Of a DNA stretch of 64,000 bases, positions 5,101 through 61,709 are shown one piece after another. This stretch comes from Halocafeteria seosinensis (Eukaryota). Below the pieces are notes generated by a model that was not told the origin of the DNA, ran no database searches, and worked only from the letters and a program-made list of their open reading frames with translations. Location of the stretch: assembly GCA_001687465.1 (NCBI GenBank), contig LVLI01000118.1, positions 62,001 to 126,000 on the forward strand, in the 5' to 3' direction. The position numbers were made by a program, and so were the translations under genes. Each line of letters begins with the position of its first letter. Position 1 is the first letter of the stretch.

Positions 5101-6208
5101 TGTTCACAAGGCTATACTAAACATTGCACCTAGATACGTAGTGGCGTACCTGAATGCCTCCGGAGGAACGCTGTACTTTGGAATCACTAATGAAGGCACT
5201 GTTCACGGGGTAAAACTCTGTCGTGCAGATAAGGACGCAATAAATTTGGCGAAGGACTCGATAGCGCAGGTATGTATTGTATTCGCTGATTCGGTGGGAG
5301 TTTTATGACTGATCTACATGAACTTGGTTCTGTGTTTGCGCAGAGAATAGGGCCTCAGGGAGTACTTTACCTAATAGACCATCCTGTTTTCATGCCCGTC
5401 TTTCGCAGGCTGTCCCACGCGAGTCAAGACGGCAGTTACTTTGAGGGACTACCAAACACTTATGTGATCGAACTGAATGTTAGCGCCAGTCCGAACCCTA
5501 GTGTACTTCACTATGAAATACGATCCAACGTCCCTAAGCGTTCGGGGAAGGACATCAAAGATTCAGCATATGTTTACTGGGTACGACAGGCGGCTAGCGT
5601 TCGCGCCATGAGCGACCCGCAAGAGATCGCGGAGTGGGCATTTGGTAGAGGAAGAACCTACGGTGGTGCTACAGATAGACATAGTCTGCATATCTCCCGA
5701 TTGAACGAAGCGCCGACCAGTCTTCCCGGTAATAGCACTTTACAAGAAACGTCCACCACGACGAATGCTGAGACGAAGTCTTCTTTGCCTTTATCCCCGG
5801 ATGAGAGTAATCCGCAATATCGAGAAGTTGACATTGCGCTTGCCCCGGAACACGGGGTTGCTTGGCAAGTGCCGTCCGATAAAAGGCTCAAAGACAGCTT
5901 TGGTAGCAATACAGTGCTGACTCTACGATTATCTCAAACTCCATTGAAGAATGTAGGTGCATTATTCCGCAAACATTATCTGAATCAACTTTATTCACTC
6001 CTGGTTGTGTCCACAGGGAGTTGGACTGGTCGTAGAATCGTTAGGTGGAATTCTATGTAAGACCCAGATTATTTGCTCGGGTGCACTACTGTTGGAAGTA
6101 AATGGCGAAAGCGTGGAGAAACTAAGGTTGAATAAAATCCGGAAAATTCTGGCTCCCGGGAAGATAAGAAGACTTAGATTTTTATCACCCTTGCCTCGAG
6201 AATCGTAG
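2107..6208 (+). CDS. ~1298-aa protein with winged-helix/LOTUS-like repeats, a Schlafen/AlbA_2 domain and a C-terminal PDZ-like region; exons 2107-2244, 2312-5269, 5344-5952, 6017-6208
   Basis: Three phase-0 GT-AG introns join four ORF-track fragments in frame. AlbA_2 motifs: EEDLHHEFK, YVVAYLNASGGTLYFGITNEGTVHGV, YVIELNV, YWVRQAAS. C-terminal LLLEVNGESV..L..IRKIL resembles PDZ. Confidence 0.8.
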
Positions 6209-10697: not shown

Positions 10698-11302
10698 AAG
10701 TGTTTTCAAATCTGTATTTCCAGCGCTCCAGTGCTCCTCTGCAGTGTAACCCGTTGCTTTCTACCAACAGCGGTAGTAGTGCCAACCAAGCACCGTGGAT
10801 TAAGAGGCCTTTTCCAATAAATTAACTACAATATACTTTGTTTCTATACACAGAAAGAGAATTTCATTACATGCGTCTAGCAGTGGAACGTAGCAATTAC
10901 TTCGTATTGCAGTACGGCAGATCAAGTAACCAACCAGTCCTACCACGCAGTTCCCATCCATACACAACTTAAAACTACCGAGCAAAGAAAAGCATGAAGA
11001 AAAAATCACTTCCATTCATTCATTCATATTCTGTCATAGCCTACTCATAGGGCTGATTTTGTTGAAGTTGGGCAATTTGGGGTTCATTGTCCGGCCCGGC
11101 CGGCACCGTCCGGGAGAAAGGCCCGGACCGGCCCTGAGACGTTCTTAAAGGTCCCTTATTGTGTAGGTATTGTTCTCTACACGTTTCTGGGTCATTTACG
11201 GTGCTCGTTCGTAGAAAGACACGTTCGGTCATCTGTACGTTACTGCGTAGAGGCTGTCCTATAGAGGAAACTCTGGTTCTGAAGAGTGGAAAACGCTAGA
11301 GA

Positions 11303-18138: not shown

Positions 18139-21100
18139 ATGTATGTTATATTGAACTGTCATCATGCAGAAGGAGATAATCACTGGATAAGCCTTGGTGA
18201 CAGAAAAGCAGCTTGTTTGGCGAACACCTGGAAGTTCAACAGAATGAATGAAGAAAATGCAACTTCTCCCTTGAAAATACGCGCCCAGCACCATACAAAT
18301 GATGACAATGAGAGCCATTCGCACTCGCGCCATTCTTTGAGAGCGGTCCATTCAGCGGGATGTATGGAATGGGGAAGATCACCTGAGAGTCGGAACCTGC
18401 GTGTGCAGGGGCGGAGTGCCTCGACGCCTGCCTCAACTCATGAGACGTACTCGCGTCCTTTGCATGTTACGCGGATCGATGGGGAGAAGGAGGAATCGTA
18501 TACCATACTGGAGTCTGAGAGTGACGTGTCATGCAACCTGGAGGAGATAGACCCGGTAACATTACGAGGCAAACTACTGGAGGTACTGCGGAAGTACCGG
18601 TCTATGAGGCATTTACAGCAAGCAACTCGTAGTATTACAGGAGCCGGTGTGGTTGGGGGCGTGAGCAGTCAAGATTTGGCCTTGGAACGAGTAATCGACG
18701 CAGCTTCAGAGATCATGAAGGCAGAGCGCATCGTACTGTTTCTGCTGGATCAACACTCCCACGAGCTTCATTCGGCGCTTTCCAACTGCCCGGACCATGA
18801 AGTATGTTAATCAAGCAATGGAAGTTTCGCCTTTACTTATTGAAACTCCTAGTGGTTGCTCTATTTTACAGGGAATACGCATATCGATGTCAGAAGGACT
18901 TGCTGGCTATGCTGCGCGCACGGGGAAAATAGTGTGCTCCGAAAGTAGGCAACTGTCGCTGTATGTTACGTTTTGCGACATCGACCAGATTTTTGCCCGC
19001 CGCAGACGCACAAAAGAACCGAGAATATAATGAAAAGCTCGACAGACTGTGTGGCTACCATACTCAATCGGTTTTAGCTATGCCTGTCACCGATGAACAT
19101 GGCCATACGCTGGGAGTTATTCAGGCGGCGAATCGGATTAACGACGTCGGTGAAAGAAGTGGATTCAACGAGCACGATATTTACCTACTAGATGGGGTCG
19201 CTTCAGTAGCTGGCAATGTATGTCTAAACTATTCGCGGCTCAACGTGCTCGTTGGGTTATACGAGTATGACGTTCTCTCTGCAGGCTCTTTCCAAGTTAA
19301 AACTATACCTCGATGCGAAAAGGGCAGCTAAGGTTCAATCAAAAATGCTTCAACTAACTAAGGACCTCGCTGCGGAAGTTGATCTATCTCGGATAATCAA
19401 GACTGCCAAGAAGGGGATATTCTCTCTTTTAAGCGTCGAGTTCGTTAAGGTGTTTTTGGTGGACTCACACGCTTCTCGTGTCTTCCTCCTAGATGTCGAT
19501 GAAAAACGACAAGACGAACGTGTTATGATAAGACGATCGTTCGAGGTGCCCAGAGGACTCGTTGGGACTGCTGTGGACTATCGACAGACTGTGTGCGTTG
19601 ATTCTGCCCCCACGAGGCCTGATTTTGATGAAGAAATTGATGGAGTTTTGCCGGAACCCGAGAGTGTTGACGGTACCACTCCTGAAGGGTCTCCAGGATC
19701 AGGTCTTAATGTCTCTTCATGCGTATGTGTACCCGTAAAGGACCCGAATGGAAAAGTGGTCGCCGTGATTGAGGTCATAAACAAAAAACAAGAGAAGGTG
19801 TTGCCCCGAAGGGCATCTCACGCCACTAACAAAGATAGTCCAATGCATATGGACGAAGGTAGCAAGGGTCTCCCGGTGGTAGCCTTTAATAGGAATGATA
19901 TTGAGCTTCTAGAAAGCATCGCTGCGTCTTCAGGTGTTTGTTTGGACAAGGCCATGATGTTTGCCGAAATCAGTAAGGCTCATAGGAGAACAGCTACTCT
20001 TCTCGAAATCATTAAGACCACCTCTATGCAAGCTGATCTATCTCGCTTTGTGCGAAGGATGATACAGTCGCTGTACAAGGCCATCCATGCTGATAGAGTT
20101 ACTTTGTTTCTAGTGGATAAGCCAAGAAACGCATTACAGGCCGTGGAAAGCCGAGATATTAGAGGGCAAAGACTATCATTGAAGCATGGAATCTGTGGAT
20201 ACGTCGCGCGCACTGGACATGAAGTAGTAGTCCGTGATGCTTACCAGTCCCAGTATTTCAACGCTCGGGTAGACAAAGCCACGAATTATATTACAAGGAG
20301 TGTTCTTTGTCTACCGATACTTGATAGGTCTGGAAGAGTAATGGCCGTACTGCAAGCGCTGAACAAGATCCCTCCTGGCAGGACCAACCAGACCGATTCC
20401 TCTGTGAAACGAAGCACTTCCATGAAAAATGCGCGGTTTTCTACAGGGACTCCAACCGCCCATTATTTCAGAGATGATAGGTCTCCGCGAGTACAGCGGT
20501 TTTCGGATACTCTCCCTAAACCAAGGGGTCGGTCCGGAAGTACTATTGGGCCGTTAGAGAACGCTCGTGATTCTTTTAATGGATTGCTAAGGTCGTGTTC
20601 TATGCATTCTGATGGTAGTTATCCCGGTTCTTCGGGGCGCGCCGCCGAGCCATCTAGCAATCACCAAGTTTATTCAAGCCCGGGAGAAGGGTCCAGTGGA
20701 TTCAGTCCAGCATCCGGACCAAAGACAACAAGAATCCGCGCGGAAGACAAGGCGGCTTCATTCAATGATGTCCAGTTTTCTACAAGTTGTTCAGCACGCG
20801 ACGAGACCCTGCGGACTGTAAACTCAGTTGCTTCGATGTCACCAGAGATATCACCAGCCACGCGACCTAATGTTGGCTTCAATGACCCACCGGTCTTCTC
20901 TCTTCGCGAGGATCAGGGACGAACGCGCCAACGATCAGGTTCAATGCTGGAAAACCCCGCTACCCGTGCCAAGATTCAAGGGTACAGTTCAGGCAGGAGA
21001 CGTACCAGCTCGGAAAGCGATGAATACCTAAGTGCTCCTTATGATACGGCCTCTCGTAGTGATGTAGGTGAGTCAGACCTTGGCACCGGTAGAGACTTCG

Positions 21101-23166
21101 ATTTAGTATGCAATGGTATCTTCAATTATTTAGACGTGAAAGAAACATCGGAATATAATGCTTTTGGATCTGAGGATGTCGCAATTGCCAAAGCCTGTTG
21201 TGTTGAACTTGCTCAGCGGTTTTCTCAGAGTGCACCTGAAGAAATTCTCTTCGAACTACGGGCGCTAGGTGAGGGTCCGCAGAAAGGCGAGAACACAGGT
21301 ACTTCTAGACAAAACAGTCCCACTTCTGTAGGAGAAACAGCGTTAAACAAACTGACATCGCTATTTGCGTCATACACGTCCGGGGGAGGAAGCTCGGGGG
21401 CGTCGAAAAATACTGGCAGAATGCACCGTTCGCGCTCCGTTGCTCCGGCGTATGAGGATCACCCGGCTTTTCAAGATATTCCAGAAGACGCAGAATCACA
21501 TGTCTCCGTACCCACCAGGCGTAAGCGACTGTCGTTCAAAGACAAGATTAAGCCTCTTCATAAAAGCTACAACGGAAGTGCACCTTTTGATCAGAGCTTG
21601 TGCTCGGATATTCAAGTCGTCAGTGTTTCTTCGGGGCCTGTCTTATCCACTGAGAGTGTCAGCATGGGAGACCACGCTGACTCCGTAGATAGTATTCAAA
21701 CTTCTTCTGCTGAAGCTGGACCTACAGTGATCGAGCAGGCTGACCCCCCTTTAGCACCTGTGAGAAATTTACGGTTTCGATGCCCCGCCAACAAGGCTGC
21801 CCTGCCGTCACCAGTGTTTTCCACGGAAAGAGCTGCTACGTTCTACGACGCGGACATTATCGTAAAGTTTGCAAATGACGTAAACGAAGCTTGTTTAAAG
21901 AGGATTCTGAACACAGGCCAGGAAAAGGATATCTACCAGGCGCTATTAACAGAGGATCAGAAAACCTTGTTGGTACAAGAGGTAGAGATGCAGGCCAGCC
22001 GAGATGAACAGTCTATGCAGTCCGCCACTGCTACCGTTGACGATAGCAGCTCAAACCCTGCTGATTTCTACCCGCTGCCGTCCCTACGGTCGGAAGAATT
22101 GGAGTCGTTTTCGTTCGACGTCTTCAGTAATCCAGCGCGGATATTTGTACCTTCGGTTCTCCTAATGTTGCATCGGTTGGGTCCTCTGTCTCGGCTTGGA
22201 AAAATAAAGAGCCACCGAATTATCGATTTCGCAGCCCGTATTGGACATCTATACCGTCCAGAGGAAATTTGTCCATTCCACAATTTTATGCATGGGTTCA
22301 GTGTTTGCCAGTTCACGTATGCACTGCTTTTAAGAATGAATCCTGAACAGATGCTATTACCCATCGAGCAGCTGTCGTTGATGCTCGCCGCTCTGGCGCA
22401 TGATGTTGATCATCCGTCAGTAAGCAACAGCTTCCTAGCTAGTGCTGATTCAGAATTGGCTCTACAGTACAACGATTGTTCAGTGCTTGAGAACTATCAT
22501 GCTTCAATTGCTTGCCGCGTCATCAAGGAAGTTAAGTTGCTAGAAGATATACCGAAAGAGGATTCTCGGCGAAGTAGGAATATTATCATCCAGTCTATTT
22601 TAGCTACCGACATGAGTAAGCACTTCGATTTGATCAAGGACATAAAGCAGTGGCTGTCACCTCTTTCTACTAGTGGGCTAGATCTAACGGACGATGCTGG
22701 AGACTCTACGGATTCTCTGTCTTCAGCAGAAGCTTCTGCAGCTCTTGAACGGTCAGATGCGAATCCTGACGCAAAAAATCCGGAATTTCCGACGCCCGAA
22801 GAGCGAACTAAATTATGTGAAGTCCTTTTACATTGCGCAGACCTCTCTGGGCAAGTTATGCCCATGCATTTGGCAAAGGAATGGTCGGGGAGAATCACGG
22901 CTGAGTTTGCCCGCCAAAGTGTGCTAGAGAAGAAGCTGAACATAGAAGAAACACCTCATATGCGTGGATTAGAAACTGAGAAGGCTCAGCAAGAGCTCCA
23001 AATCGGCTTTTGTGACTACGTTGTTGCCCCGCTTTGGCGAGCTCTCAGCGATGTATGTCCAGATGTCTGCCCGTGTGTTGCCCAACTAGAGCGTAACAGC
23101 GAGGAATACAAACGACTAACTGAATTGTGTAAGAACGCAGAAGAACAACCCGAATCCAGTCAGTAG
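18139..23166 (+). CDS. Class I cyclic-nucleotide phosphodiesterase with three N-terminal GAF domains; exons 18139(or 18244)-18801, 18872-18944, 19006-19217, 19285-23166
   Basis: GAF motifs GLAGYAARTG, GYHTQSVLAMPV, GICGYVARTG, TRSVLCLPI, ALNK. PDE motifs FHNFMHG, AHDVDHP, LENYHA, ATDM, HCADLS, QIGFCDYVV. Introns are phase-consistent. Confidence 0.95.
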
Positions 23167-42081: not shown

Positions 42082-43969
42082 CTAGTCATAGCGGCCCAGC
42101 AGGCCATCGATGAATGCTCCATTCAGACGATGTTCCCTCTGAAAGTTTGCGTATTCGTGTACGCGCAGCTCAACGTCGCTTACAGACGATCTGATGAAGA
42201 CGTCATAGAGTAAGTAGCCACAGCCGGTGCGTCGAATATCCATGAGAGATATGCGAAAATCACCAGTACAACTCACCCACTTCGGTTTGACCATATCCAG
42301 AGTGACTAGCATTGTCTTGTCGATAATTTCTTGGGAGATCATAATGTTGGATTGCATTAGTTTCTGTCTGTAAACCCATTCCAAGTCGGACCTGCTCAGG
42401 TAACCATCGTCGTCGAAGTCCAAAATCCGGAACCAATACCCGATACTGTGGACACTCATTGCATCTTCATGGGCAAAGAAGAACAAAAGAAATTTTTCAA
42501 AGCCAGCCCCATTCCCCGTTAGCGGAAGAACAGTATCTAATATCCTCGGATGAAGATCAAGATTCTCCACTAGTGTCAGGCTATCCTTGGTGATGATTGA
42601 TTGCTGGCTCCACTCCCCCGCCTTCTCTGAAACAAGAGCATTGCAAAAAGTCCCATAAATTGTCTCGAATCTGACGACGTTAAATGCTGGTAATTGGGAC
42701 AGCCGATTCACGGCGCACTGGTAAAAGATATCCACTACATTGCTTTGAGACAGCTTGTGTAAGGTCGTGAATTTGGTCGACACCCCTTCAAGAGAAGACA
42801 GTATACTCACGAGTACATACTTGATATAGGCTTTTCGCTTCGTAGGCTGTTTTCTAAGGGATGCTAAGTCAGGATGTCTGTCAATCAGGGCCTCGATGAA
42901 TGGCTTTAGATGCCTCCGATCAATTCTTTCCCATTTCCATTCCTCGGCAATTTTGGAACATTGGTATATTTCGTGTCCTTGACTTGTTTCTAGTGACAAG
43001 ATTTCGTCCTTTTGTGGCTCATGAATCAATTTAAGGAACTTTTCTCTTGCATTTGCACTGCAAAAATCGTCTGTGCAAAATCTCAAGAAATCTCTGAGTC
43101 CTATTCGATCATTTTCTGAAGAATTTGGGGGCTCACTATTCTCATCTTCATCCTCTGGGATCCATGGAGCTTCTCTAAATTCTAGCACCTTCTCTTGGCA
43201 CAATTGTTGAATAACGGACTTGTATTGCTTGATTCGTTTGAAAAGCACAACTCCAAAATATGCAGGGAGACGGCAGTATTGCTTGACTAGATCGCGGAAG
43301 CCCTGACACGTGGAGGAAAGCCGCCAGGAGTTCTCCCGAAAGACGGTCAACACAAACTTTGGTATATCAGTAAGATATCTCGGAACGCAAGTTTGTTCTG
43401 ATGGAAGTCCCGCGGCTCTCGGGTAAATTCTAGTTAGTTCGCGCCTGGCAACACAAACGGCCTCAATACAGCTCGTAAGTGTTTCATGCAACATTTTGGT
43501 GGTAGCACTTCTTCGTTTGACTAAGCAATGCAAGTCGGCATTCAAAAATGGGCGATTTCTGGTCGAAGGTATGATGCCAATTCTCATGTGTGTTCGCGCT
43601 TCCGCTCGATCCTGTAAAATACAAAACAGCGGCATATGTTGGAAAACGCACATGGAAAATCATGGCTAACGCCTTCTTTACCTTGCTGATAGAGACCATC
43701 GATTCCAGTACAGCCGATGACTGACAATCCACGACGTCGTACACGAATAGGACTGGCCACAGGTCAACCGGTGATCCGAGGTGTTCCGTTTCTTCTTTGA
43801 GTTCTTCTGAATTCTTGGCAACTTGGAGTATCAGAGGTAATGTTTTTGCAGCCTCCTGGTAAAGCGGTATGAGCTCCGTAGAAGCGAACAGGATCACCTG
43901 AAGTACACTCTCTCCCGAAGATGTCTTCGTCTGCATACGTGAGGAAACAGGCCGGGAATCGGACGGCAT
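42082..43969 (-). CDS. PP2A B''-like (PR72/PPP2R3-family) EF-hand protein, paralog A; exons 43969-43682, 43611-42082
   Basis: CRLPAYF, LKPFIEALIDRHPDL, FEKFLLFFFAHED, SIGYWFRILDFDDDGYLS, DMVKP...ISLMDIRR match B'' motifs in divergent form. Confidence 0.82.
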
Positions 43970-44812: not shown

Positions 44813-46967
44813 CTATTCGGCTGTCGCTGCTGGAGTCACTGGACAAGCAAGGAATTGACTAGGTGGTCGCGTTGGAATAATTACTTGCCTTTCAAGCGGC
44901 TGCAATGACGAAGAAACAAACAAATCAAATACCACAAACCCCGCTCCACTCTTCCTGATCTCAAAAGGGGATATGCGGAACTCTCGAGAAGATTGGTTGG
45001 TCACAGGATGAATAGCATCCATAAGCTTGCACATCGCGTTATGCCCCAACGTCGACGCTTGTTCAGAGGAAACACCGGCTGCAATGAGCTTCTCTCGATA
45101 AACCACCTCGAGATCCTGACGACTAAGATACCCATCATCATCTATATCCAAGGCTCGGCACCAATATTCCACACTAAGGTCGCGCATGCGGTCTTCTTTC
45201 GCTAGTAAGAACCACATGTAGTCTTCAAAATCTAATCTTCCCTGTTCACTAGTATTCAGAAGCTTAACATTGGAACGAAAAATTCTTTCCAGCACAGTGT
45301 GAGTTATGGGAAGACTCATTGCGGACTGTAGTCCTTCACGGTGTATCGTTGCATTGACTTCCTGCGTCTGTTGGCTACAGCCGGATGCTTGGCTATTAGA
45401 CAAGGCTCTCTGAAACACCTCGTGTGCCTCTTCGAAATATCTTAGGCTAAAGGGTAATACCTGGGACAACTTGCATGTAGCACACTTATAAAAGAGGTTA
45501 GCAACTCCTGACTCCCTTAGGTGCCGAGTGGGAACGCATCCCTGGCAAAAGCCGTTTAAAGAAGCAAACACACTGGTCAACACACATGTAACATATCTGC
45601 TCTTGCGCTCGGCATCCTCCCTAAGTTGTCGAAGATCGGGATGCCTTTCCACCAGTGCTTCTACCAAAGGTTGAAGATCTTCCATATAAACTCGATTCCT
45701 ACTCAAAGATGGCAGTTTTCCTCGAGTTGACGAGGAATCGTCGGTTTCCATTTCCAAAACCGTTTCGCAACTCGGTGGTATGACAGCTCTAAGAAACCTT
45801 GACATGCGCCCGCTGTACCTGACCGCTGGGGTCCAAAACCTTAGAAAGTCCCTCAAACTGATAGCAGAAGGATCCTCGGTGCTTTGCTTCCTGGTATTTG
45901 GAAATCCGGGAACACTGTCTAGACTGGTGGGAGCAAGAGACCCTCGCTCTATTAGTTGCTGTGTTAATGAGCGATACTGTTGGATGCGTCGAAATACCAA
46001 GCTGTCGAAATAGGCAGGGAACTTGCATGCTTGCTTCAAAAGTCGCCGAAAACGTGGATCTTCTGCATGTAGCTTTTCGCTTCCGTCTCCTCCGAATGAT
46101 ACGACAACCTCCTCGGGTATCTCCGCTAGGTATGATGGAGTCACCTCGCTTACTGGTGTACTCGTGGGATCTTCGACATCCTGGGCATTCATATCTACTT
46201 TCTCAATTGAGGGCGACTGAGACATTGAGATCGTGCGAGAGGGCCGAGGAAGCTCTCCACTTCCTGATGGGCTGGTGGCATCCACTTCGCCGACGTTCGG
46301 GGTCTCAATAGGTTGCAATGAGCCCATACCTTGAGACATGTTTTCCCCATGTCTACTATCGGAATGATCGCCACCTGGGTTATTAATCTGGGATTTTAGG
46401 CAATGAAGCACTACACCTCTGATATCATGCTCCGTTCGCCGAACGAGAACTCGCTCGTTAGGATGCCAGTCGTTTCTACCTGTGGACGAAATGACCCACC
46501 GTGACGCTGGAGAAACGTTCTCCTGTCCAACATGTTCAAAAACCATAAAAAATTGAATGCGTCAGAACAGCTGTATTCACCATACTCAATCTTACCTTGA
46601 CCATCTCTATCATCTGTGGAATGGCATATCCGCAACTTGGGTCGTCAATTTCGAACAAAAACACGCAGTTGGGTGGAACAGACTCAAGTAAGCATCGCAG
46701 TTCGTTGACCGATGATGCCCCTACAAGGCATACGGAGAGGTCACGGCAAACATGTGAATAATATTGTAAGAGGTCGCGGGAGGAAATAATGACCGCCGTA
46801 GGGGTATTCTCCTCGTTTATAGTTCTCGGACTTGCTTCTCGATGCGGAAACGATGGTAAACACGTGGCACTGCGGCTGCCGCTGAGGCGCTTCTCCTGTT
46901 TCGAAGCTGTATCTGACGAACCACCAAAGTTCAGCAAACGCTTAGCAGTATCTCTTAGTCTCCCCAT
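44813..46967 (-). CDS. PP2A B''-like (PR72/PPP2R3-family) EF-hand protein, paralog B; exons 46967-46596, 46522-44813
   Basis: CKFPAYF, DLQPLVEALVERHPDL, LDFEDYMWFLLAKED, SVEYWCRALDIDDDGYLS, ISPFEIRKSG. Intron position matches paralog A. Confidence 0.85.
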
Positions 46968-48470: not shown

Positions 48471-51400
48471 TTACTGCGACGACGGCAATTGCGTCTGTCT
48501 TCGTGCATTACGCCGAAGAGATGTACCCGCGGACGATGCCTGGGCGCTCTTCTTGGAGTTTGCATTGTTCTGTGCTTCTTTAGTGCTCCTACCTCTTTTC
48601 TTCCGGTTTGTCTGCATTTGTGGAGTGGTCTCACGTCCNGCGGGATACGATACCCCCTCCGCCGAAACAGGAACCGCCGCAGGACTGTAGTCATTAGACT
48701 GAGAAGTTTGCGCAGCAGCGACAGTTGCAGTGGCCGAGTTAGCCGACGAACACGTCGCAGCATAAGGGGTTCTTGCTTCAACGGACACTGTGTAAGTGGA
48801 CTCCACAGAAAATGACTCTGTGCTCACTACGGCAGAGCTATTTGTAGCAACCGTGGAGGCAGTTGCGCAACGAGCGACCTCCGTCGAACTTGCTGCTGTA
48901 TCCGCAGGAGTCCTAGCACCCGTTGACGATTTAACAGCATGGAGAGCAGTGGTTTCAGCACCAGAACCACGACTATTTGCATCAGTATCAGTTCTTGGCT
49001 TCTTCCCCGTCCGCATTGTTTCAGATAGCCATTTGGTTGCTTCTGTAGCAGCGCGACGCTTCCCTCGGCCACCTGAAGGCGTAGGTTCACTAACTTCTGG
49101 TTCCATAATTTCGATGGTATTGTCGTCCTTCTTTCTGACTTCATTAGCAGCAATTTGGTCTCTCAATGCTCTCTGCTTCATCCAAAAGTCTCTAGCTTGG
49201 CGTAAGTGCTCTTTATTCACGTTGTGTCTCATACTATCCCACAGTTTCCATGGTGGAGTGTTGTACGGCGAACCGAAGATCCCCCCTGCACCTCCTACAT
49301 TGAAATGGGTGCGACGAATTTTGTCTTCTCTATTAACAGTGAATCCTCCAGTGAACGGATTGTATTTCCGCACAAGCGCATGCCCGTTGATTCGAATGAT
49401 TTGAAGAGCCGCATATGCCGTCCCATCGACGCCTTTCATTCCTTCGCCTGCGTCTGAGCCAAGCAAGGGTGGCAGTCCCTTTTCTTCGCGGGCTTTGTTA
49501 GCAGCCTGATACAGAGCCTGTCGGTCAGTTATTCCTTCAATAGTAGGAAAGAAGACATCGTCACCTCTGTAACCCCATAGGGAAAACAAACCTCTCCAAG
49601 GTGCGAGGCGTGGCTCACACCACGGGCACCAGATGTCTCCGCGAGCGTCTACAAGGACATCGGTAACTGAGTGATAGTACCATTCACCTTCTTCAGGATT
49701 TTTGCCCCCGTTCCGTATTTGCTCTTGGGTGGCAGGTTCTAGTCCCAAACAGTGGAAATGAAACCATTCATCACATGATGAACAAGCAATCATGGGGGAT
49801 GCATCGTTAAGGTACGGCTTCCGGCACACGCAGAGAGGTACGCGGTCTTCCTCAGAAGTATTCCGCACAATTTGCTCGCCCTTCTCATTGGTGTGAATGA
49901 CTACCAGATCCGCTTTAGAGCGACTTTGGGAGCTGCTTTGAACAGTAGCAGGAGCAGAGCCGGTGTTGTACGCGTTAGCTTGACCTTTAGACTTCTTGTG
50001 ACCTGGGCTCACTATCGACTGCCAATCCATGACTATGTCGTCTACACATCCATATTCCCGGGTCCATCCTCGCGCTATTTGTTCCATCTTCTTTGCAGCT
50101 GCAATAAACGCTTCCGGTGTTAACTTCGCTGGACAGAAGGGAATGAGATCGGTCCCCAGTAACCTGCTTCGCCAGTACGAATCCGTATTCTTAGGTACGT
50201 TCACATTTCCTGAAGACTTGCCCCCACTCCAATGAAATGAATGAGGGTCGCTATACATAGGCTTCAAAGGGAGATACAGCAACTCCCCTTGTCTTCTTCC
50301 ACGAACTGAAACTTGTCTCAATACAAATTCGCCAGCCTTGGGAGTGGTAGGAGGCTGCTTCATACGCTGCTCCTTTTGCAGCTCAACTTCAGGATTACCC
50401 AGGGCGGAGCGAAGAAGAGACGGTTGCTGCAACAACACCTGAATACGCTGATATGCTCTTTCACAAAGCTCTCTTGGAAAGAGATACAATGGAATACCGG
50501 GAAAAAAATGTACCAGAACATTCACTGGTTCGAAGTCTTGCGAACTTCTATCGACTTTTCGTCCGTGAGAGCTTGTTTGCGATGCTTGGGACTCGTCGGA
50601 GAAACCGGGGTAGCCTAAAAATTGCTTTAGAGCATTAATTCCGGGGAGTTCGAGCTCTTTCTCTGCATTGCGCACAGAACCCCCTTTTTCGCGTGAGGAT
50701 CTCGTCGTCTTCGATAGCTCAAATTTCTCCAGCAATTTGTTCTTCCAGTCATATCTGGGCGCACCTGACTTCCGCCGCGCGTTTCGGAAGTTGTCCTGAT
50801 GAGACTTCTCCCGTTGCTCTTGAAGTGCGGCAGAAAGCCGCAGTTTTTGAACCGGCTCTTTGCTCTCTGCAGTTGGCTCGCGACAGTTCGTACAAAACAC
50901 AAGCAGAATTGGGGATTCTCCACTTAGCGCCCTCTCTGCCACACTCGTCGCAGCCGCCCTGGCAGAGCTGGATGGGGTATATAACCATTTCGGAGCCTTT
51001 TCCAGGTCCGAGGAAGGGGGGTTCATATCAATAGTAATGTCGTTCTTCCGCAGGGCATCCACTGCTTCTGGTGAGCATTCAATAGAACTCTGTAAGAATG
51101 CTCTAGCGAGATCCTGACTTGCAACAAGAGGAGCAGTAGACCTAAACCCTTTAGTATCTTTCCTTAGAGTTCGTCCAGCGTTTCCCATGGTGCATTCCTC
51201 CAAATACTTCTGCCACATTGTAATATACTCTTCTTTGGCATGTGCTCCAGCCACCAACAAGCCACGGGCCAAAGCACAATAAGGATGCACATTATGAGAA
51301 CATCCTGGAGTCTGACAAGGAACGCAGAGCCCTTGCTGCAGCTTACAAACGCTACAAGTAGCCGGTTCCGAACAGTAAACGTTCCGAGCAAACCAACCTT

Positions 51401-54400
51401 TCATTGAGTTTGGCTCGACCCCTCGAATAGGCTCCATACTGGAAGAAGCAGGCACCACAATAGGACATGCGTCACGAACCACTCCTTTTTTGCACGCATG
51501 CACGCGGCTCATACGAGACTGATACCGCACATGGGCAACTGGTCCTTGTGTTATGCCGGCGAGCCGGGCGCAAACAACGTGGATCCAATTCCTTCGACCT
51601 TCCGCAGCATCTGTAGCTTTCATTGCTCCACGGCTAACGCCACAGGCCACACAAGGAATATGCAGGGGAGTGTGACGTTGAAGGGCGGCTTTCGCTCCAC
51701 CAGCTGCGGCACACACATCACAGAACCAATCTCCCTCGGGAATGGCTATAACTCCATAACATCGTTGGTGTACCGCCAAGTTGCAACTCTCACAGAAGAC
51801 TATCTGGTTCGCCGGGTGGCTATCTCCACCATGACAAATAGAGCATACCGCATCAAGATCTTCTTCAGCTTGTTGCATGGCACGCTGACGTTCGATAGCA
51901 CGGCGCCGAGCCTCACGTTTCCATGCGCGCCAAGCCCTCCGATAGAACGAGCGGGTCTTCCATTGTGACTCTTCTTCATTAGTCTCCCGGTCCACTGTAG
52001 ATACAAATTTCCACGACTTAGTGTCGTTCCTGTGCATTAAGCTACGCAACTCATTCTGGAGAACAGAAATCTCGTCAGCTATTTCATCCTCTTGGACTCC
52101 CTGGGCAATATCCGTAATACCGGTGTCAGGCTTCTCTTTTTCATTACAACGGCTCTCTAGATCTTCCACTCCAAGGTGCACCGTGCGCAGAATGCGATCG
52201 CTCTGCAAGTGTAAGTGTAAAGGTACATATCGTGAACTGTTAGCATGAGCACGAGGAACTGCAGCTCTAGAAGGGCAATTGCCTGTTTGGGAACCTGTCG
52301 GATCATTGTCTATGGGACTACCCCGGGGGGAATCTTCAAACTCCGTGTCAACCTCTTCTTCGCCCAAGTTTTTTGAAGCATTGTTCTCTACGGGAGACAT
52401 CTCCCGGATTCCGACATGGAGCATACCGCCATGGCCACCCGCACTATTCTCTTCTTGTGTCTCCGCGGGATTAGTGTCAGATCCCTCAAGAGCTCTCTGA
52501 TGTGCCTCATCCACGCTCATGGTCGTCGGGTGCATATTGAAAATGCGCAAGTAGTATTCCACTGCCTCAGGTGTGCTATCACATAAAGCCGATGTTATGC
52601 CAACGCATAGAGCATGTTGGCAAGCAAGTGCAAACAAGAGGGTACCAGTTCTCGGCTCACTGCCCGGGTTGGATGCCGCTGCATTCTCTGTAGACTGTGT
52701 AGGGTGCCTTTCTTTAGGCGTAGGAAAATTGCATGTCAAGTCGCTATGAGATTCATCCTTCACAGCCTGGAGAGTAGCAACATACATCACCCGTTCTGGA
52801 GGTGGCCTCTTTCCTGCCCCAAGCTTGGATTGAGAAAACCACATAAAGTAGTAGTTAATAAAACCTACCAAATGGCCTTCCCGTTCCGCGACCAAAGTGA
52901 ACTCGTTCTTAGTCTCGAGTGAAGCTTGGAAATCTGCAGCGCAAGTAAACGCCTTGTTAACTCTGTTGATGACGTTAAGAAGAGATGAATCGTGCACCCT
53001 TGCATCTTCCTCCGAATCCAGCTTGATTTTCCTAGTACGAGAGGTAGCAAAGCGGAATTCAGTGTTCTGACATACACCCTTGTTCTTCGCCGCATTAAGC
53101 ATCTGGAGTAACGGAGGATAGGCATCTAAGTCTGCTACGTAGCTTTGACGCAGGTGGGAAAAATCATCTCCTTGTCCCCATCCGGCAAAGTGATTCGTAG
53201 TCGTAGTAGTAAATTCGCGAGGAGTATCTGATGCTTTGTAAGCACCACCGAATTTTCGTTCGAGTGACTCCACTGGCAGCGCATGCATTTCAGTGGCTTC
53301 TGAGGTAGACGAAGCGGAAGGAAGACTTACCCCCATGCTAAGCCTGGACGCGGCTCGTCTTGAAGACCCACGGTCCGAGCTGAAAAGCGATACATTGCAC
53401 CCGTCATACTCCATTTTCCTCCCAGCAGCATCGTCTTCTTCTTTCCATAGTTGCGTGAAATGCTTTCCCAAGGGTCTGGGCGGCTGAAAAGCCGTATCGT
53501 TACGGTCATGGGCTCGTGTCTTCATCTCATCACTTCGTTGTAGCGATTCTTCGGACCCGCGACTCCGGTCTTTCGGCTCCACCGGATACTTGTAACTCCT
53601 CTGGACTTCAAAATGAGTCAACCTATAATTAGCCAATTGGTTAACTAATCGTTGCTTTAAACTTCCTGATTCTGACGTGAGATCGTTAGCGGCAGAACGG
53701 AACGTTAGGGCACCTGCGGGACTTCCTCCTCCGCCTAGTTCTAGTCGTCGAAACTTCCTATTAGCCCCATGATGTTGTTCATCGTCAATTAGACGAAATC
53801 GCTTCCTTAGCGAGCGAGGAAGATTTCTTTCACAGCCATCCGTCAACACATGCCCCCATAGGAGTTCCTGATGGAACGCTTTTCTGGATCGTGCTTCATA
53901 AGCGAGCAAACTGGAAATCGGAGCGAGAACACCTTGTTTATCGACATACGGGTTACTGTAGTTCCGGTTAGAGGCAATGCCTTCGCACTCAAGTTCGACG
54001 TTAGCAACTACCTCTTCAAGAATTTTCGCTATGTCAGGATCGACAGGTGCATTCCTGCGATCACTCATGCCCCCTGTCTCATTGCCGCCTTCCTCGCACC
54101 GTTCCCGGCCACAGTAGAACAAAGAGAGCTCAGGTCTCTGAACGTCACCCTCCACAGAGTCCTGACTAGAGCTTCTGCGGAGCTTCGGCTCAGCAGCCAT
54201 CAGTGTGGCTATTCCACGCCGATTAGCCTTTTGAATTTCCTGCAAGAACTCGTAGCAGCGGATGTAGAACGGTGGTTGCAACGCGTGAAGTGGTGTTCCC
54301 TGGGCTGCGCTTAGCGATCTAATTTCGTGTCCATATCCTGATTTCAAACATTCAGACTTAGCCGTTCTGAACGTTATTCGCGTTTCCTGTGATGAATGCT

Positions 54401-57170
54401 GATGATTTTCAAGGGGGATGTCAGGTAAACCATTCTGAGAAAACCGACGCCACGGAAGTACTGATCTAATGCATTTCTTAGCAACATCAGTGTTTACGGG
54501 GATGAAATAAGGGCATAGGGCTGGCCAGATATCGGCAGCCACTCTCGGTCTAATGACCAATGAAAGGGTCCCTTCGGATTCATCAACGTCTTCTGGCAGA
54601 GGAGTATTCGGTGTGGCGCCTCCAGACTCGCTCTTTCGTTTGCGTGGACGAGAAAAACGCGACTTGTCTCTATGTCGATCTGCATCATACGCCGCGCTCC
54701 TCTTATCCACCATATATCGCACTAAGGAGGGAACACTACCATCCCACTCCTCATCACTGCTTTCATCGCCACACTCGTCGAACCCTCCAACAGCACTATG
54801 GAGCGAATCAGTAGACGAACTGCTAGTGCTGGCCCCATCACTATTATCCGAGTCACTATCTTCACTTGGAGCTACCATACTAGACTGCCTACCCATATCC
54901 ACACGACTCCCGCTATGCGATGTATGCCGAATGAGACGATTTAGAAGAGCTCCCAGTTCTTCTCGACGTTTGCTAATCAATTTCTGTTGCTTATTTTGAG
55001 ACATCCCTTCACCCTTTTCAGCACACAAGCGCATACCTTTCGTCTCGTATCGTCGTTTCCGCAAATAGTTTTCCCGCTCGAGAGCTTCTAATTTTCCACG
55101 ACGATCTTTGCCATCTCTCGGGTCATCTTTGGTACAGTACAACATGAATCGTCCGAGCAACTCCGGGATGTTATTCTGATCGATCCACTCGAACCTTAGG
55201 CAATGACCGTTGTTCTGGGCACACGTGACATGGAATGCCCGACCACAGGTGCCATAATTGCACTGAACACACGCTCCACGCTTTTGCCGACAGATCAGAC
55301 ATTTCAATTCAAAACGCCGGACATCTACTTTCTTGACATTGTGTACAGGAGATAGCAACTTTGGGTCTGGAAATTTTGGCTCCGGAAAATAAGTCGCACA
55401 TTGCGTATGTATCCAATATTTTGGAGGCCGATCACATCTGCTAGGCGCATTGAGTAAAGCCCACACCTTGAACTGATTCTTCGTCATGGAGGACAGTTCA
55501 GCATCAGGATCCGAATTCTGCAAGTCAGCAGCCACTGCTAACTCTACCATATCAATAAGCGATCCCATAACACTTGTCGCCTCATCTTCAATAGCGCCTT
55601 CACTGGTTTGAAACGATCCTCCTCGATACCTCCGTTCATCAATTTTTGCCGCTCGAAACGACTGCTTCCCTTTCTTTAATAGTTTCGCAACATCTGTTTC
55701 CTCTTTGCTATCAACGGCTTTGAAACAACCACTATATTGGGGGCATAGACAGCATGGTATCTTGCTGGACTGTATACCGTACCGGCAAGGATCGCAGTAC
55801 CAGGTACGGAAGCGTTTACCTGACTCCACATTCCTAGCGGGACAATGTCCCCGAAGTAACGCCTCCCCAAACGCATGATGTGGAGTAAGTTTGGACACCC
55901 GTGGCCATGCGTTGTCCAGGTAAGTCATAGACTTTCCGGAGCTAAGAGGGACTTTGTCTTCCTGCTTTAATTCTCCTGTCAGTATCCAATGTACTTCAGA
56001 ATTCGAGACCCCAGCACATCGCTGATGGACACAGATGCCACAGGCACAACACTGCAGAAGAGGATCATCCTGAAAACTACGGCTATCTCCACATCCCGTG
56101 CATGACGGCCCCTCCAAGTTTAATAAAGCGATTGTTTCACGACTCTGTTCAGTCTTCTCCAGTTGTTTCATTCGTTTCGTTCTCTCGTAAGGGTCCTCAC
56201 CAAAAAGTATTTCCAGTTGCCGCGAGGAGAGACCCTGGTTCTTCAACGTTTTGAAGGTTTGAAACGAAATAATACTCTGAACGAAGCGTGGAAGGTATCC
56301 GTATTCCTGCTCTAGAGTGAGGTTACTGCTCGGAGATTTAACTATAGCATTGTATACGGGAGCAGAATTTGGCTTTGTGGAAGTTTTGCAACCGTGAGCC
56401 TGTTGTTGCGTACATTCTCCATTTGTGGAAGACTGGGCATCCTCAGCTGTAGAATCTCGGTTCAAGGGTGACAACTTCGAGGCTCTGTTGGCAGAAGACC
56501 GGTTGGAACTCGGGTTATGGCGTAACCGCCTGGCCTTAGTGAGAGTGTCTCTCGCCTCCTCCGGGACTCTGGATACCAAACAGTCTAGTAATAGTAAGAA
56601 ACTCTTCTTATACAAACCAAAGATATAGCATGCCTCATACCTATATACTGGGGGTGTTTGCGTCTCCGCGAGATGGCCTGCAGAGAGGAGAACTGTGCAA
56701 GCACGCTTGTAGTTGGTTTGGAAGTAGACTAACTTACTTTTCTTTTCATCAACGAATTGGTCGATATTTGGCAAAGTTGCGTCCATTAGCTGTCTTGCAT
56801 TTGTGTACATAGGACTTCCAGGTCGATAGTATTTCATGGCGTTGCGGATAATGCGTCGTACATCCTGCCGCATGTCTTCCAGACCCTCTTGGGTTTGCGT
56901 ATACATCCCTCTTTCTAATTTCTGTGGGATTCATAAAATACTGACGACGTACTCTTTCCCTGACTACCATTAGCAACACCAAATACATACTTTTGCCATC
57001 CAATAGAAGCACATTGGTTCTTGGATACAGCGATAGTACTCGGGATCTTGCTCCGGGGAGGGAACAGTGTTAAACACGTTACTCTTGTCCCCAGTTTGAA
57101 CGGCATTGTGGAGTAGCCTCCTGGCTGCTTCATGAATTTGCTGCATATCCAGTTTCCTTTCCCGTCGTTC
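48471..57170 (-). CDS. ~2900-aa chromatin protein: bromodomain + PZP + ADA3-like motifs + GNAT-like domain + PZP + PHD; exons (>=57170)-56991 and 56921-48471; true start unresolved
   Basis: Spliced bromodomain PEYYRCIQEPM...DVRRIIRNAMKYY. PZP1 CTGC..LLQCCACGICVHQRC..WYCDPC..CCLCP..WIHTQC..CLIC..GACVQC..FHVTC; PZP2 CSICHGGD..IVFCESCNLAVHQRCYG; last PHD LCVCRKPY..MIACSSCDEWFHFHCLG. Confidence 0.9.
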
Positions 57171-58167
57171 CTGATACAAAACTAGTTAGAATTCTCGCCT
57201 AGTCCTGGCGCTTTCGCTCCTACTTATTGACCCCGGTTATACAACCAAATCGGCATCTCTCACTAAGGATAAGTCGATACCACTATTTTCTTGCCTGCAA
57301 CTTCATAGAAAACGCAATTAGGACTCTCGATACAGCAAGAATGGGAGCCCAGAGACGACCATTCCTGCACGTGTTTTTTTTTTGAAACACACGACAATAG
57401 CAAAAAGGTTTTCCCGGGGACTCCAAAAGGGAGGGCGAGGACCCGGCGAAAAAGCACGAAGTCACTAGAACCACCCTCTCGTACAGACGTATGAAGACAA
57501 CAAATGCTCTTTTAGGGTATTCATACAAAAGAGTAGACAATGCAGATTCACGGAAGCCCACAGAAACATTGAATCGTGCACTTACGACGGTAAATAGGGA
57601 CGATATTCCGTGTTGAGGGACGTGGACGGCAGGCCCAATCAAAAGTAAAATAGCTATTTTATACAAGCGCACGGCTACCTTAACCCTTATCGCCCTATGA
57701 TCACTTTTTGTTGATTCCCTTGCACCATATGGGATATTCTGACAAATCAACGCTGGATAATTTTTGTATACTCTGGCATGATCATTGTGTATTCAGGTTT
57801 GTGATTTCAAATGACCTCTTCCGGGAGCTACAAACATTGTAAAATGGTAGAAGTTCCTAGACACTAGGAATGTGTTTGTGTGCATTGTATGAGAATAGGG
57901 ATGCAATTTTTGTCTTGGTAGGAACAGCAAGCTGCCATTTGCCAACAGATTCTCAGTAATCCTCAATGGTTTGCTGACTTCTGCGATAGAGATCAATTGA
58001 ATTACAATTATGAATACATTAGCCTACCAGAACAGAAATGGGGAGAACTTGGAGACTTCCACCCATTGCTGCGGCACATCGTACATACACTCAGGTGTGG
58101 CACTGTAACTTCAGTGACTTTGTACTACCAGGTACCCACAGTACAGTCATGCAGCACTTCCTCGTGC

Positions 58168-58462
58168 TGTTCTTCCTCTTGAAATATCGCCTTAGCGCCG
58201 ACATACATGGACATACCTACCTCTCTGTTCCAATGCTTGCTAATTGAATGAATGCCCCACGGTGAGAGCAGAATCTGTTGTACAATTGTACGTAATTGTA
58301 CAACTGTACTACAGCACTACAGGACTGTGTATATACTGTACGTGTCGGTAACGCAGCAATTCGTCGACGAATCGTCGTTTTGTTCCTCCTCTTGAAATAT
58401 CGCCTTAGAATCGACATACCTACCTCCCTGTTCCAATGCTGGCTGAATGAATGAATGCCACC
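58168..58462. repeat. Pair of ~80-90-bp diverged direct repeats
   Basis: CCTCTTGAAATATCGCCTTAG...GACATACCTACCTC.CTGTTCCAATGCT...TGAATGAATGCC occurs at ~58168-58258 and ~58381-58462. Confidence 0.85.
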
Positions 58463-58472
58463 GGAAATAGTG

Positions 58473-58508
58473 GAGGTCCCGTTGTCGATAGAGGTCCCGT
58501 TGTCGATA
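58473..58508. repeat. Perfect 18-bp tandem duplication GAGGTCCCGTTGTCGATA x2
   Basis: Units at 58473-58490 and 58491-58508. Confidence 0.95.
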
Positions 58509-58946
58509 GAGAAGGGAACAATAGTAAGTACATAGATGTTGGGTCCAAGTACGTCGCGAATCTTCGACTTCTTTCTTCACAGGTGCCTCGAAAGGAGGTC
58601 AAGGGGTTGATAACGTTTACCTTGGAATATCCATGGAACCACGTTGAGAAGAGAATCCGAATTCCATTGCGTATGATGTGAATCCATTTCGCACTACAGC
58701 ATCTTTGTTGAAGGAGCCCTCAAAAGTGTTTTGCAACGTTCATCAAGGAATTATGAGATCACTGGGAGTTGTAATCAGCATTGTGCACTGAATGATCTTA
58801 GTCTACCCACAACAACAAAGAATCTAGTGTTTATGTTCTTCTCCATATGCTAAAACCAGTCTGTTTTCAGCGGAAAAAGAAAACATCCGTTGAACGAACT
58901 TTACAAGAAAGCTTCCTAAACACAACTCGACAATGCACAACTGACA

Positions 58947-61709
58947 ATGAGTAGTCCGCCGAAGAAGAGATCGAGAAGGCCGAAGCGGTACCGATCATAT
59001 TCCCGGGGGCAGGAAAAGCTACTACGCGGGGGTCTAGATGTTTGTCCAGACCAAAGGTATCGTGGATTCTCTAAGTCCTCTCGTTCGACACATCTTTTTT
59101 TCTCCGATGACAAAGATGATACTACTGAGATTGGTGAGACTGTAACGCCCTCGGAAACAATATTCACCACGGGTGGGGAAAACAGTGAGGTGAGCGCGGG
59201 GGAATCACAAAGGCTTTCAGATAGGAAAAAGTTTCCCAGCGCTACAGAAGTTGATATAGGAAATGGACGCGAGGGTAACGCCAATGCAAACCAAGAACAG
59301 ACTTTGGTTCGTAGGGGGAGAAGTAATGCCGAAGCGGGCTGTAAAAAGAAGCAGAAGAAAGGCCCAATTGACATTGAAAAAGCAAGTCCCTTCTCAGCTT
59401 CGGTGACTAAAACTCGGAACCCTGCAAACGCGAACAAGGGACATAGCTCAAGCAATCCAAAAACTGTTGAACATTCTGAAGGAGCAAACTCAGATAAACT
59501 CGGCTTAATCCAACGACGGCAGGAAAATGGTTCGCCAGTTACTGCCGCTCCTCCCCCAACGAGCACGAGCTCCGCTACTCTACACTCGAGAGGGAAGGGA
59601 TTGTTGGTAACCCAAGACGAAAAGTATGAGGATACAAGTGAGTATCGGATAGAGGTAGATGTATGACAGTTTAGACTTTGTCCCTTCACCGATGCGTTTG
59701 TGCCCTGTGGTATGTCTTGTACAGGTCGCAAAGCAGCGTTGTTGAACTGTTTGGAAGAAACCCAGGATGTCACTCGGTACCCGAAATTACAGCTCACTTC
59801 CGAAGACAGGGGGGCAATAGAGGAGATGATCAACAACAGTGACGATGACTTAACGCATACGCGTTTTAGTGATTTCCAGTCTTTCAAATTCAGCATCCAA
59901 AGTGCAGTGGAGAGTCGGGAGAATCAGATGGTAGCGACTCTTGTTGCAATCGAGTTGTGGGAAAGAATCCTGAAAAAGATACCATCAACGCCACCAGGGA
60001 TACCTTTGGAGGCAGGTACGTTGAACTCTAAGAAGGGGAAACCAGAGTTCTTGTGAGGAGTTCTATCTTAGGTTGGTCTTGCAGGCGACAAGGGTTTCGT
60101 GAAGTTCGTCCAGAGTGTGAGACAGATGCCATACACGAAGCACGTGAAGTACCTGTCGCAATGCCAGATATGGGGAGCAGGCAATCTTCCCGATGGAAGG
60201 TTGTATGTTCGTCCGGTATATCGCAAGCTGTACAAAGTACTACGTGATGAGCCAGCTTCTACGTTGTTTACCATCGAAGGAACTCCTGGAATAGGGAAGA
60301 CTACGATGATTCCCTACATGATTTGGCGTTTATTAAGGGAGACCCCGCCACCAGAAAACATTTTCTTTTGTCCCCAGCAAGAAAACAAGCATTTCCTTCG
60401 CATTGCTAGAACTGGAGCAATAACCCGCGTCACCAAAGTAGAGCTCAAGAATCAACTGCATCCTGGCGATTATGTTCTCATCGATGGAGAAGTCGGAAGC
60501 TCTATGGGGAGCGTTTCTGGATATGCCATACGCCTGGAAAGGGTCAAAATGGTTGCCTTCATCTCCCCTCGGAAACGTAACAGGCAGTGTTTTGGAAACG
60601 AACGGCTGAAACGGAAACTAATGCCACCATGGGGGATTCAGGAACTTCTTGATTGCCGCGAACATGTGTATAAGACCATACCAAGAGAAGATGTCCTGAA
60701 TCGCTTCAAACAAGCTGGTGGTGTCGCGCGGTATGTGTTTCGTGACGGAGACTGGACACTCATCAAGTCTGAGCTATCGAAACTGGATTTGTCGACGATC
60801 CTCCACTACACGGGCGAGATACGAGAGTCGACATCAACAGACGATGGGAGGTTTCGTGTTCTGCATGCATGGCCAGATGCTGCTCATTCCTGTCCGTTTC
60901 AGTTTGAAGCGGGTATTATCCGATTTGCTTCAACTGCTGTCCAGAATTATGTGTTGACAAAGTGGGACCAACAGCAATGGCTGGAGATCCTTGAAGAGTT
61001 ATGGCAGAATACAGGAATCGAAATACAAGGATACAGGAATCTGTTCGAAACAGCATGTCACAAACTTTTGCCTCAGACGGAACCACACTCGAAACCGTTA
61101 AGATTAAAATACCAGGCTCTGGAGAAGCACCCAGGGGGATGGACACGAAGTGGGAAGAAAGCCAAGTTGCGTTTACTTAAGGCTGAGATGGTCGATTTTG
61201 GCGGCTGTACTGCCATCGATAGGCTTGTGGAGAAGTCTCGAAACATGGCCGACTTTGAAGGTGTATATGCGGACCCCCTTGAGGGGCGTTACCCTTCCGT
61301 TGACGCAGTTATCATTCCCAAAGATTTAACGCAAGCGCCGATTCTCTTGCAGTATACGGTAGGTGAAGATCGCTTATTGGACATGTATGGGGTGTTAGGG
61401 GTCTGGGAGAGTCTTAGTGGTCACTTCTCGAAACTCCCGGTATTCTACTTCGTGGTGCCTGATCATCGCCTTGATACCTTTCAGCCAAAACTTCCTAAGT
61501 ATTCGCATGGAATCAAGCAAGCAGCGGTGAAAGATCTGTTCAAGAAAATGCAATTTTACATTGTATCCCTCTGTCATGGTAAGGTTGCACTTATCCACGG
61601 TTGCCCCAGTAGCATGTTACACCTGTTCTGTCCTGCAGACAAGCTGAAGAAGCGACTCATAGATGGTACGGCTGGAAACGGAGGAACACCGTCCAGTACT
61701 AGAAGATGA
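58947..61709 (+). CDS. Crinkler/RHS-type (CR) protein: P-loop NTPase + PD-(D/E)XK-like nuclease, ~848 aa; exons 58947-59637, 59725-60015, 60085-61578, 61639-61709
   Basis: LYVRPVY, Walker A IEGTPGIGKT, MPPWGIQEL, GGVARYVF, FAS, LFETACH, YPSVDAV, LLQYTV, FYFVVP. Introns are phase-consistent. Confidence 0.85.

Follow-up and report, generated by a model that had tools for sequence, protein, structure and literature searches.

A double-PZP chromatin protein of Halocafeteria seosinensis with an Ada3-type helix and an embedded GNAT domain

The window analyzed here, 64,000 nucleotides of the eukaryote Halocafeteria seosinensis (GenBank assembly GCA_001687465.1, contig LVLI01000118.1, positions 62,001 to 126,000 of the forward strand; coordinates below count from its first letter), carries on its reverse strand a gene for one large protein. 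From the N-terminus the chain comprises a bromodomain, a PZP module (PHD, Zn-knuckle, extended PHD), a W-motif, an IPxLG motif, a GNAT domain, an Ada3 helix, a second PZP module, and a TAF3/DIDO-type PHD. This architecture is real, conserved, and apparently undescribed. Among GCN5 complexes built on PZP scaffolds it is a new variant, whose ADA3 signature is marginal but consistent and whose GNAT is unusual. Precomputed annotations of the protein name PHD and bromodomain only.

The Gene and Its Transcript

The region between the two PZP modules lies within an uninterrupted open reading frame (ORF) of 2819 codons (48471-56930, reverse strand, as are all features of the gene given below). The whole coding sequence (48471-57146) specifies 2824 amino acids in exons at 56991-57146, 56738-56921, 56641-56677, and 48471-56568, the start codon at 57146 being reached once three coding introns are spliced out; a further intron (approximately 57294-57584) lies upstream of it. 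One public contig of 8586 nt covers 48675-57752 minus four GT-AG introns, and the spliced coding sequence is identical at 2820 of 2824 residues to a transcript-derived protein with a complete ORF (P0002, 2824 amino acids). Because the spliced contig spans the locus and the spliced coding sequence matches P0002, the fusion of readers, Ada3 helix, and GNAT is a single real mRNA. The unspliced form of the gene is present in another sequencing run. An artefact of assembly or gene calling was considered, and is ruled out by the spliced contig and by 49 relatives of the protein.

A first-pass annotation of the window had proposed that ADA3-like motifs flank a GNAT domain inside a double-PZP chromatin reader. 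The eight motifs it quoted all share a single reading frame of the ORF, between the two PZP modules and where it had placed them: the W-motif at 54504-54533, GSLKQRLVNQL at 53634-53666, a PPRPLG motif at 53433-53483, the GNAT pieces at 52551-52901, and an EDEIADE motif at 52038-52091.

Reader Domains

The N-terminal bromodomain (56793-57098; Pfam PF00439, E 1.1e-14 on P0002) is split by the intron at 56922-56990. The first PZP module (55128-56102) contains long insertions and is recognized by Pfam zf-HC5HC2H_2, zf-HC5HC2H, and PHD_2. The second (51261-51845) has a first finger of the BRPF2/JADE/Nto1 type, and its closest PDB matches are BRD1, Jade-1, BRPF1, and NTO1 (E 1e-14 to 1e-18); BRPF-type readers do therefore share a chain with the GNAT, as had been suggested. 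No Pfam match at E≤1 to the EPC/EPL1 region, which serves MYST, ING, and EAF6, was found. The C-terminal PHD (49611-49838), of the DIDO1/TAF3/PHF2 type, matches DIDO1, TAF3, PHF8, PHF2, and Spp1 in the PDB and is likely to be an H3K4me3 reader. Two stretches near this PHD, approximately 49150-49670 after it and 50030-50250 before it, are well kept in the relative P0003, with neither a Pfam match nor a counterpart in the relative P0004, and may possibly represent unnamed domains.

The Ada3 Helix and the Motifs Upstream

The Ada3-domain helix (51861-52103), with the pattern DE[IV]-x2-E[IL]-x3-Q-x2-L, runs directly into the next PHD, and in the predicted model the Ada3 part is a 74-residue helix. 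Pfam Ada3 scores the excised helix at 26 bits (24.8 in a second test) against a cut-off of 24.5, which is marginal, and the whole protein of the relative P0007 at 24.9 bits. Pfam Ada3 is matched at E≤0.1 by 10 of 23 family helices and any other family by at most 1 of 23, while none of eight control segments from the window match Pfam Ada3. When a profile of the 23 helices was searched against 177,635 PDB sequences, 6tbm_B ranked first (E 0.001) and ctAda3 (9ynv_O) second (E 0.078), designed coils coming next at E≥0.23. From its title we take 6tbm_B to be the fungal Ngg1/Ada3. An Ada3-type helix within the chain, as first supposed, is thus borne out by an excised segment just over the Pfam cut-off and by a family profile that places two Ada3 chains at the top of the PDB; the helix can be regarded with fair confidence as ADA3-related.

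Upstream of the GNAT, family conservation picks out the W-motif (W-x5-PYF and the following helix; 54450-54539) and an IPxLGxHY-x-W motif (53430-53495; identity 86% in P0003 and 41% in P0004). Using patterns drawn up after the sequences were inspected, an IPxLG-type motif was found in 14 of the 16 relatives with at least 300 amino acids before the GNAT (shuffle mean 2.1, maximum 6), and the W-motif precedes it in 13 of the 16 (shuffle mean 0.35). The two motifs are putatively ADA3-like through a resemblance, in look and in order, to motifs of ADA3/TADA3/Ngg1 listed in the first-pass annotation; their putative link to ADA3 rests on this resemblance and on the order of the motifs.

A further segment, GSLKQRLVNQL (53634-53666), lies in a variable linker. 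Its identity (27% in P0003, 7% in P0004) falls below the average of the surrounding linker (47% and 14%), and it was dropped as evidence for ADA3; it is likely a chance likeness. The conserved GxLTQRL-type motif of ADA3 has no conserved counterpart in the family. It had been cautioned that two of the ADA3-like motifs stood in swapped order, and this caution falls away because GSLKQRLVNQL lacks conservation and a single order holds for the remaining three motifs: W-motif, IPxLG motif, and helix follow one another as in the ADA3 order given in that annotation, the GNAT lying behind the IPxLG motif and ahead of the helix. What stands of the flanking arrangement is therefore these three elements, conserved in order; GSLKQRLVNQL has no part in it.

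The Embedded GNAT Domain

VIA, Foldseek, and column counts together describe the GNAT core (52530-53051) as a NAT/RimI-type fold with a remodelled motif A. It is preceded by a conserved N-terminal extension (53052-53192; predicted local distance difference test score, pLDDT, 88-97), which is kept across the family and partly aligned to the NatD extension in VIA. The last GNAT strand (52206-52238; model strand E426-431) comes after a low-confidence insertion of about 90 amino acids and carries a Pro in 36 of 36 rows. Two AlphaFold models were made, one of ORF residues 1144-1690 and one of a compact relative, P0022. In the first, pLDDT by block is mostly 88-98 over extension and core and dips at insertions, and the predicted template modelling (pTM) score is low (0.56). 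This model has 101 Foldseek matches at E≤0.001, of which the best 38 are all GNATs, and in VIA it aligns with archaeal Ard1 (Z 13.8, root-mean-square deviation (rmsd) 2.3 Å, 142/153 residues). The P0022 model (mean pLDDT 85) reaches Z 14.5 in VIA (rmsd 2.4, 142 residues aligned). Language-model features of the domain also indicate a GNAT. The GNAT-patterned stretch first noted is thus predicted by both models to be a full GNAT fold (Z 13.8-14.5), the Foldseek matches listed all being GNATs.

The best structural matches (Z 13-14.5) are N-terminal acetyltransferases (NATs), namely Ard1/Naa10, Naa50, Naa60, and NatD/Naa40, and NAT-type chains head both VIA lists. For P0022, NatD is the top Foldseek match (E 5e-8) and gives the longest VIA alignment among the NATs (160-174 residues); the NAT-type enzymes are tied in VIA at Z 13.4-14.5, within about 1 Z, and there is no profile match. 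GCN5/PCAF appear from rank 12 in the Foldseek matches listed for the first model, and GCN5 is not among the best 50 VIA rows of either model. Unlike the NATs, to which it has 10-21% identity and no sequence-profile match, the present domain has a remodelled motif A and forms part of a chromatin reader. PDB searches with the GNAT profiles A4 and A8, the latter including a few misaligned rows that carry PHD sequence, returned weak matches only, neither NatD nor GCN5 among them. Single-sequence PDB searches with the GNAT and with the 901-amino-acid region between the PZP modules gave no meaningful match, and a structure-atlas search with residues 200-680 of the relative P0012, GNAT families excluded, gave scores all below 0.9. 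Because no sequence profile recovers NatD or GCN5, a NatD-like subfamily assignment, which the models suggest, is a lead only.

Conservation of the domain was counted in 41 of 45 aligned rows, P0009, P0018, P0019, and P0045 having been dropped as misaligned or truncated. Identity across the GNAT is 87-91% to P0003 and 50-52% to P0004, and is lower across the first extended PHD (74% and 32%). Several polar residues are nearly fixed, including Y1383 (41/41), Q1388 (38/41), H1395 (38/39), D1451 (40/41), T1453 (39/41), and Y1460 (38/41). Motif A of GNATs has the consensus R/Q-x-x-G-x-G/A, and motif B is a helix A-x-x-[FY]-Y followed by G-[FM]. Here the motif A loop, whose counterpart in the alignment is the G-rich loop of 1z4e, a GNAT from a bacterium, reads S/A-E-P-x-T-G (of 41 rows, S22/A17, E37, P21, R17/Y8/K5, T39, G40), such that the last Gly alone fits the consensus and two of three positions are lost. 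Motif B fits its consensus (A22/S16, F28/Y13, Y38, G23, M30/F9 of 41 rows). Motif A is thus remodelled, yet its last Gly (40/41) persists, as do a D-S-T and the helix Tyr downstream (38/41), and the candidate GNAT may be catalytic.

Relatives and Range

At E≤0.001, a HMMER search with the 901-amino-acid region recovered representatives of 49 clusters, and for nearly all of them the match lay in the GNAT. Some were relatives of 495-1577 amino acids, a range in which a word-index search had found none. Pfam domains were scanned in 40 of the 47 new relatives; among the long members the order (bromodomain)-PZP-W-IPxLG-extension-GNAT-helix-PHD/PZP-PHD recurs, some parts being gained and others lost. 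An extended PHD is found upstream in 12 of the 16 relatives with at least 300 amino acids before the GNAT. At least 250 amino acids follow the GNAT in 24 of the 49 relatives; 23 of these 24 score with the helix profile (P0026 being doubtful), a count that is circular in that the profile was built from the same rows, and in 20 a PHD CxxC comes directly after the helix. In a tree of 40 GNAT segments the splits are deep and long branches are numerous, and the base is not resolved. Among 30 relative clusters looked up, one species name was obtained, the bigyran stramenopile Incisomonas marina; the large ENA clusters may, at a guess, be Blastocystis-like. Metagenomes scanned with the protein by itself gave no locus; scanned with alignment A5 they gave two, both with variants of the same motifs.

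Some members depart from the common plan. Locus L002 (475-5989, forward strand) encodes a bromodomain, very compact W and IP motifs, a GNAT, and an Ada3 helix (E 0.029), with no PZP seen, and the next frame holds a second bromodomain and a PHD. In P0025 (206-289) and P0031 (261-353) a bromodomain sits inside the GNAT, in the loop between strands 2 and 3. In P0032 the GNAT is followed by a Tudor-like segment and the Ada3 helix is absent, whereas P0012 has an extra zf-4CXXC_R1 finger and lacks the first PZP.

Other Features of the Window

Upstream of the gene, in an intergenic segment at approximately 58170-58510, roughly 70 bases are imperfectly duplicated in direct orientation, and a short tandem repeat is also present. 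On the reverse strand, 42082-43659 and 44813-46561 are neighboring paralogous ORFs with EF-hand-like motifs, which we take to resemble PP2A B'' regulatory subunits. The forward strand carries an ORF at 60072-61709 that has a P-loop motif and is nuclease-like in its C-terminal part, presumably resembling Crinkler/RHS-type NTPase-nuclease proteins, and a long ORF at 2249-6060 that seemingly continues past an intron and ends in a segment we take to be Schlafen/AlbA-like. Also on the forward strand, an apparent acyl-CoA-binding, PH, and START fusion (11300-13570) and an apparent GAF-GAF phosphodiesterase (19228-23166) were read from the sequence.

Comparison with Known Systems

The plant protein SPC (At1g77800) is the scaffold of the PAGA GCN5-ADA2A complex, described as ADA3-independent (PMC13601556, and the PAGA study as cited there). 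Like the present protein, SPC has two PZP modules in one large chain, and it scaffolds a GCN5-ADA2 complex; unlike SPC, the present protein has an Ada3 match and an inserted GNAT, the two being compared by PZP content only. The Toxoplasma GCN5b-ADA2 complex is described as being without ADA3 and as having PZP/PHD scaffolds and two free GNATs, and its TgPZP1 is likened there to the double-PZP SPC (PMC13601556). PHD proteins also partner GCN5 complexes in Plasmodium and Tetrahymena (PMC8396726, PMC7339932). TgPZP1/2, TgPHD1, PfPHD1/2, and Tetrahymena Aap1-4 resemble the present protein as multi-PHD/PZP proteins, sitting with GCN5-ADA2; PfPHD1 likewise ends in a TAF3-type H3K4me3 PHD, and the extra divergent GNATs of Toxoplasma, TgGNAT1/2, parallel the fused GNAT. 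The apicomplexan and ciliate systems, in contrast, have separate GNAT proteins and ADA3 is reported absent, whereas here reader, Ada3 helix, and GNAT form one chain. The accessible parts of surveys of histone acetyltransferases (HATs) in oomycetes and photosynthetic eukaryotes contain no such fusion (PMC5112689, PMC5499015). Literature searches, with low coverage of subscription papers, did not find the fusion described; PMC6672047, PMC8071052, PMC7915528, and PMC12265263 gave general background only.

The protein shares its C-terminal Ada3 helix with ADA3/TADA3/Ngg1 of SAGA, ADA, and ATAC. To our knowledge, known ADA3 proteins carry no PZP, bromodomain, or GNAT. With the BRPF/JADE/Nto1 scaffolds of MYST enzymes it has in common the type of PZP and the presence of a bromodomain, and it differs from them in having no EPC/EPL1 or PWWP match, two PZPs, an N-terminal position of the bromodomain, an Ada3 helix, and a GNAT.

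A Putative ADA3-Type Scaffold and Its Alternatives

What is directly supported is the architecture, the single mRNA, the Ada3 match of the helix, the GNAT fold, and the conservation of the family. Beyond this, we give a probability of roughly 0.55 to the protein being an ADA3-type double-PZP scaffold of a GCN5-ADA2 complex that likely contributes a second acyl-transfer site itself. Four kinds of reader would tie the protein, and with it ADA2 and GCN5, to nucleosomes. The W-motif, IPxLG motif, and Ada3 helix would wrap ADA2 and GCN5 in the manner of ADA3, and the readers would anchor the complex through acetyl-lysine, the H3 tail plus DNA, and H3K4me3. The GNAT, inserted between IPxLG motif and helix, would bind acyl-CoA through its remodelled loop and acylate an amine, either of a histone tail or of a partner subunit, or would offer a peptide-binding pocket. 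ADA3 is for the most part disordered, and its helical pieces touch all subunits of the HAT module (PMC10226619); three short motifs spaced by long variable linkers would suit such a chain, which would also tolerate an inserted domain. Within the scaffold reading, an active enzyme is slightly the better supported state of the GNAT, and a binding-only pseudo-enzyme is nearly as probable.

Several results weigh against an ADA3-type scaffold with its own acyl-transfer site. Pfam Ada3 scores 21.8 bits on the whole ORF, under the cut-off of 24.5, and a Pfam scan of whole P0003 and P0004 gives no Ada3 match. A PDB search with the single helix sequence finds no Ada3, and the helix profile, run on a large protein database (7988 candidates of 159-2000 amino acids), recovers seven family members and no canonical ADA3 or SPC. 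A profile of the W and IPxLG motifs (seven rows, shallow, with L002 misaligned) retrieves no PDB chain at E≤10; P0016 and P0050 are without both upstream motifs, and P0032 is without the helix. On the side of the enzyme, the Pfam GNAT score is below its cut-off (19.2 vs. 20.7), and the motif A loop follows an insertion after strand 4 and carries a near-fixed Glu (37/41).

The alternative that survives best, although it is rather unlikely, is an ADA3-type scaffold whose GNAT is a pseudo-enzyme that binds a histone N-terminus or a partner, GCN5 doing all of the acetylation. Loss of the R/Q and first Gly of motif A and gain of a fixed Glu would fit such a domain, as would the first place that NatD, a binder of H4/H2A N-termini, takes in the Foldseek list for the compact relative. 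Retention of the last motif A Gly, the D-S-T, and the helix Tyr over a deep tree argues otherwise, however, and conservation on the CoA side fits a pocket in use.

A self-contained reader-writer, with the GNAT in place of GCN5 and under activation in cis by the ADA3 parts, is improbable. The first-pass annotation had pictured such a fused SAGA-like HAT module, and the constant order of the ADA3-like motifs around the GNAT, as well as the presence of GCN5/PCAF from rank 12 among the Foldseek matches listed, would agree with it. NAT-type chains are nevertheless the best matches of both models, and nothing in the low-pTM model speaks for the helix packing against the GNAT. In known complexes ADA3 acts through ADA2 (PMC10226619), and a normal Gcn5 is retained in oomycete stramenopiles (PMC5112689). 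A fused SAGA HAT module is not supported because the GNAT appears nearer to N-terminal acetyltransferases than to GCN5 in the two models and because its acetyl-CoA loop is remodelled, motif A lacking two of three consensus positions; a GCN5-derived GNAT was rejected as the default reading. A recruiting scaffold for a separate GCN5-ADA2, comparable to SPC and TgPZP1, would appear to fit the literature better than a self-contained HAT module.

Least probable of all is a MYST scaffold of the BRPF/JADE kind, in which the Ada3 match would reflect a generic coiled coil. The marginal Ada3 scores and a second PZP closest to BRPF2, JADE, and Nto1 speak for it; against it stand the missing EPC/EPL1 match (Pfam, E≤1), Ada3 being the sole family matched by many members, with Ada3 chains as the top two PDB matches, and the 0/8 controls.

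Implications

The plant PAGA and apicomplexan complexes have been called ADA3-independent, and an Ada3 match in a double-PZP protein makes a hidden ADA3 directly testable. The fused GNAT, a candidate chromatin enzyme or reader, is conserved yet escapes standard Pfam annotation. Though this is rather unlikely, it may be an active histone acyltransferase that is related to NatD, belongs to a family not yet described, and is lodged in an ADA3 subunit, giving these stramenopiles a two-writer GCN5 complex; if this were true, the ADA3-independent scaffolds of plants and alveolates would be hidden relatives of ADA3.

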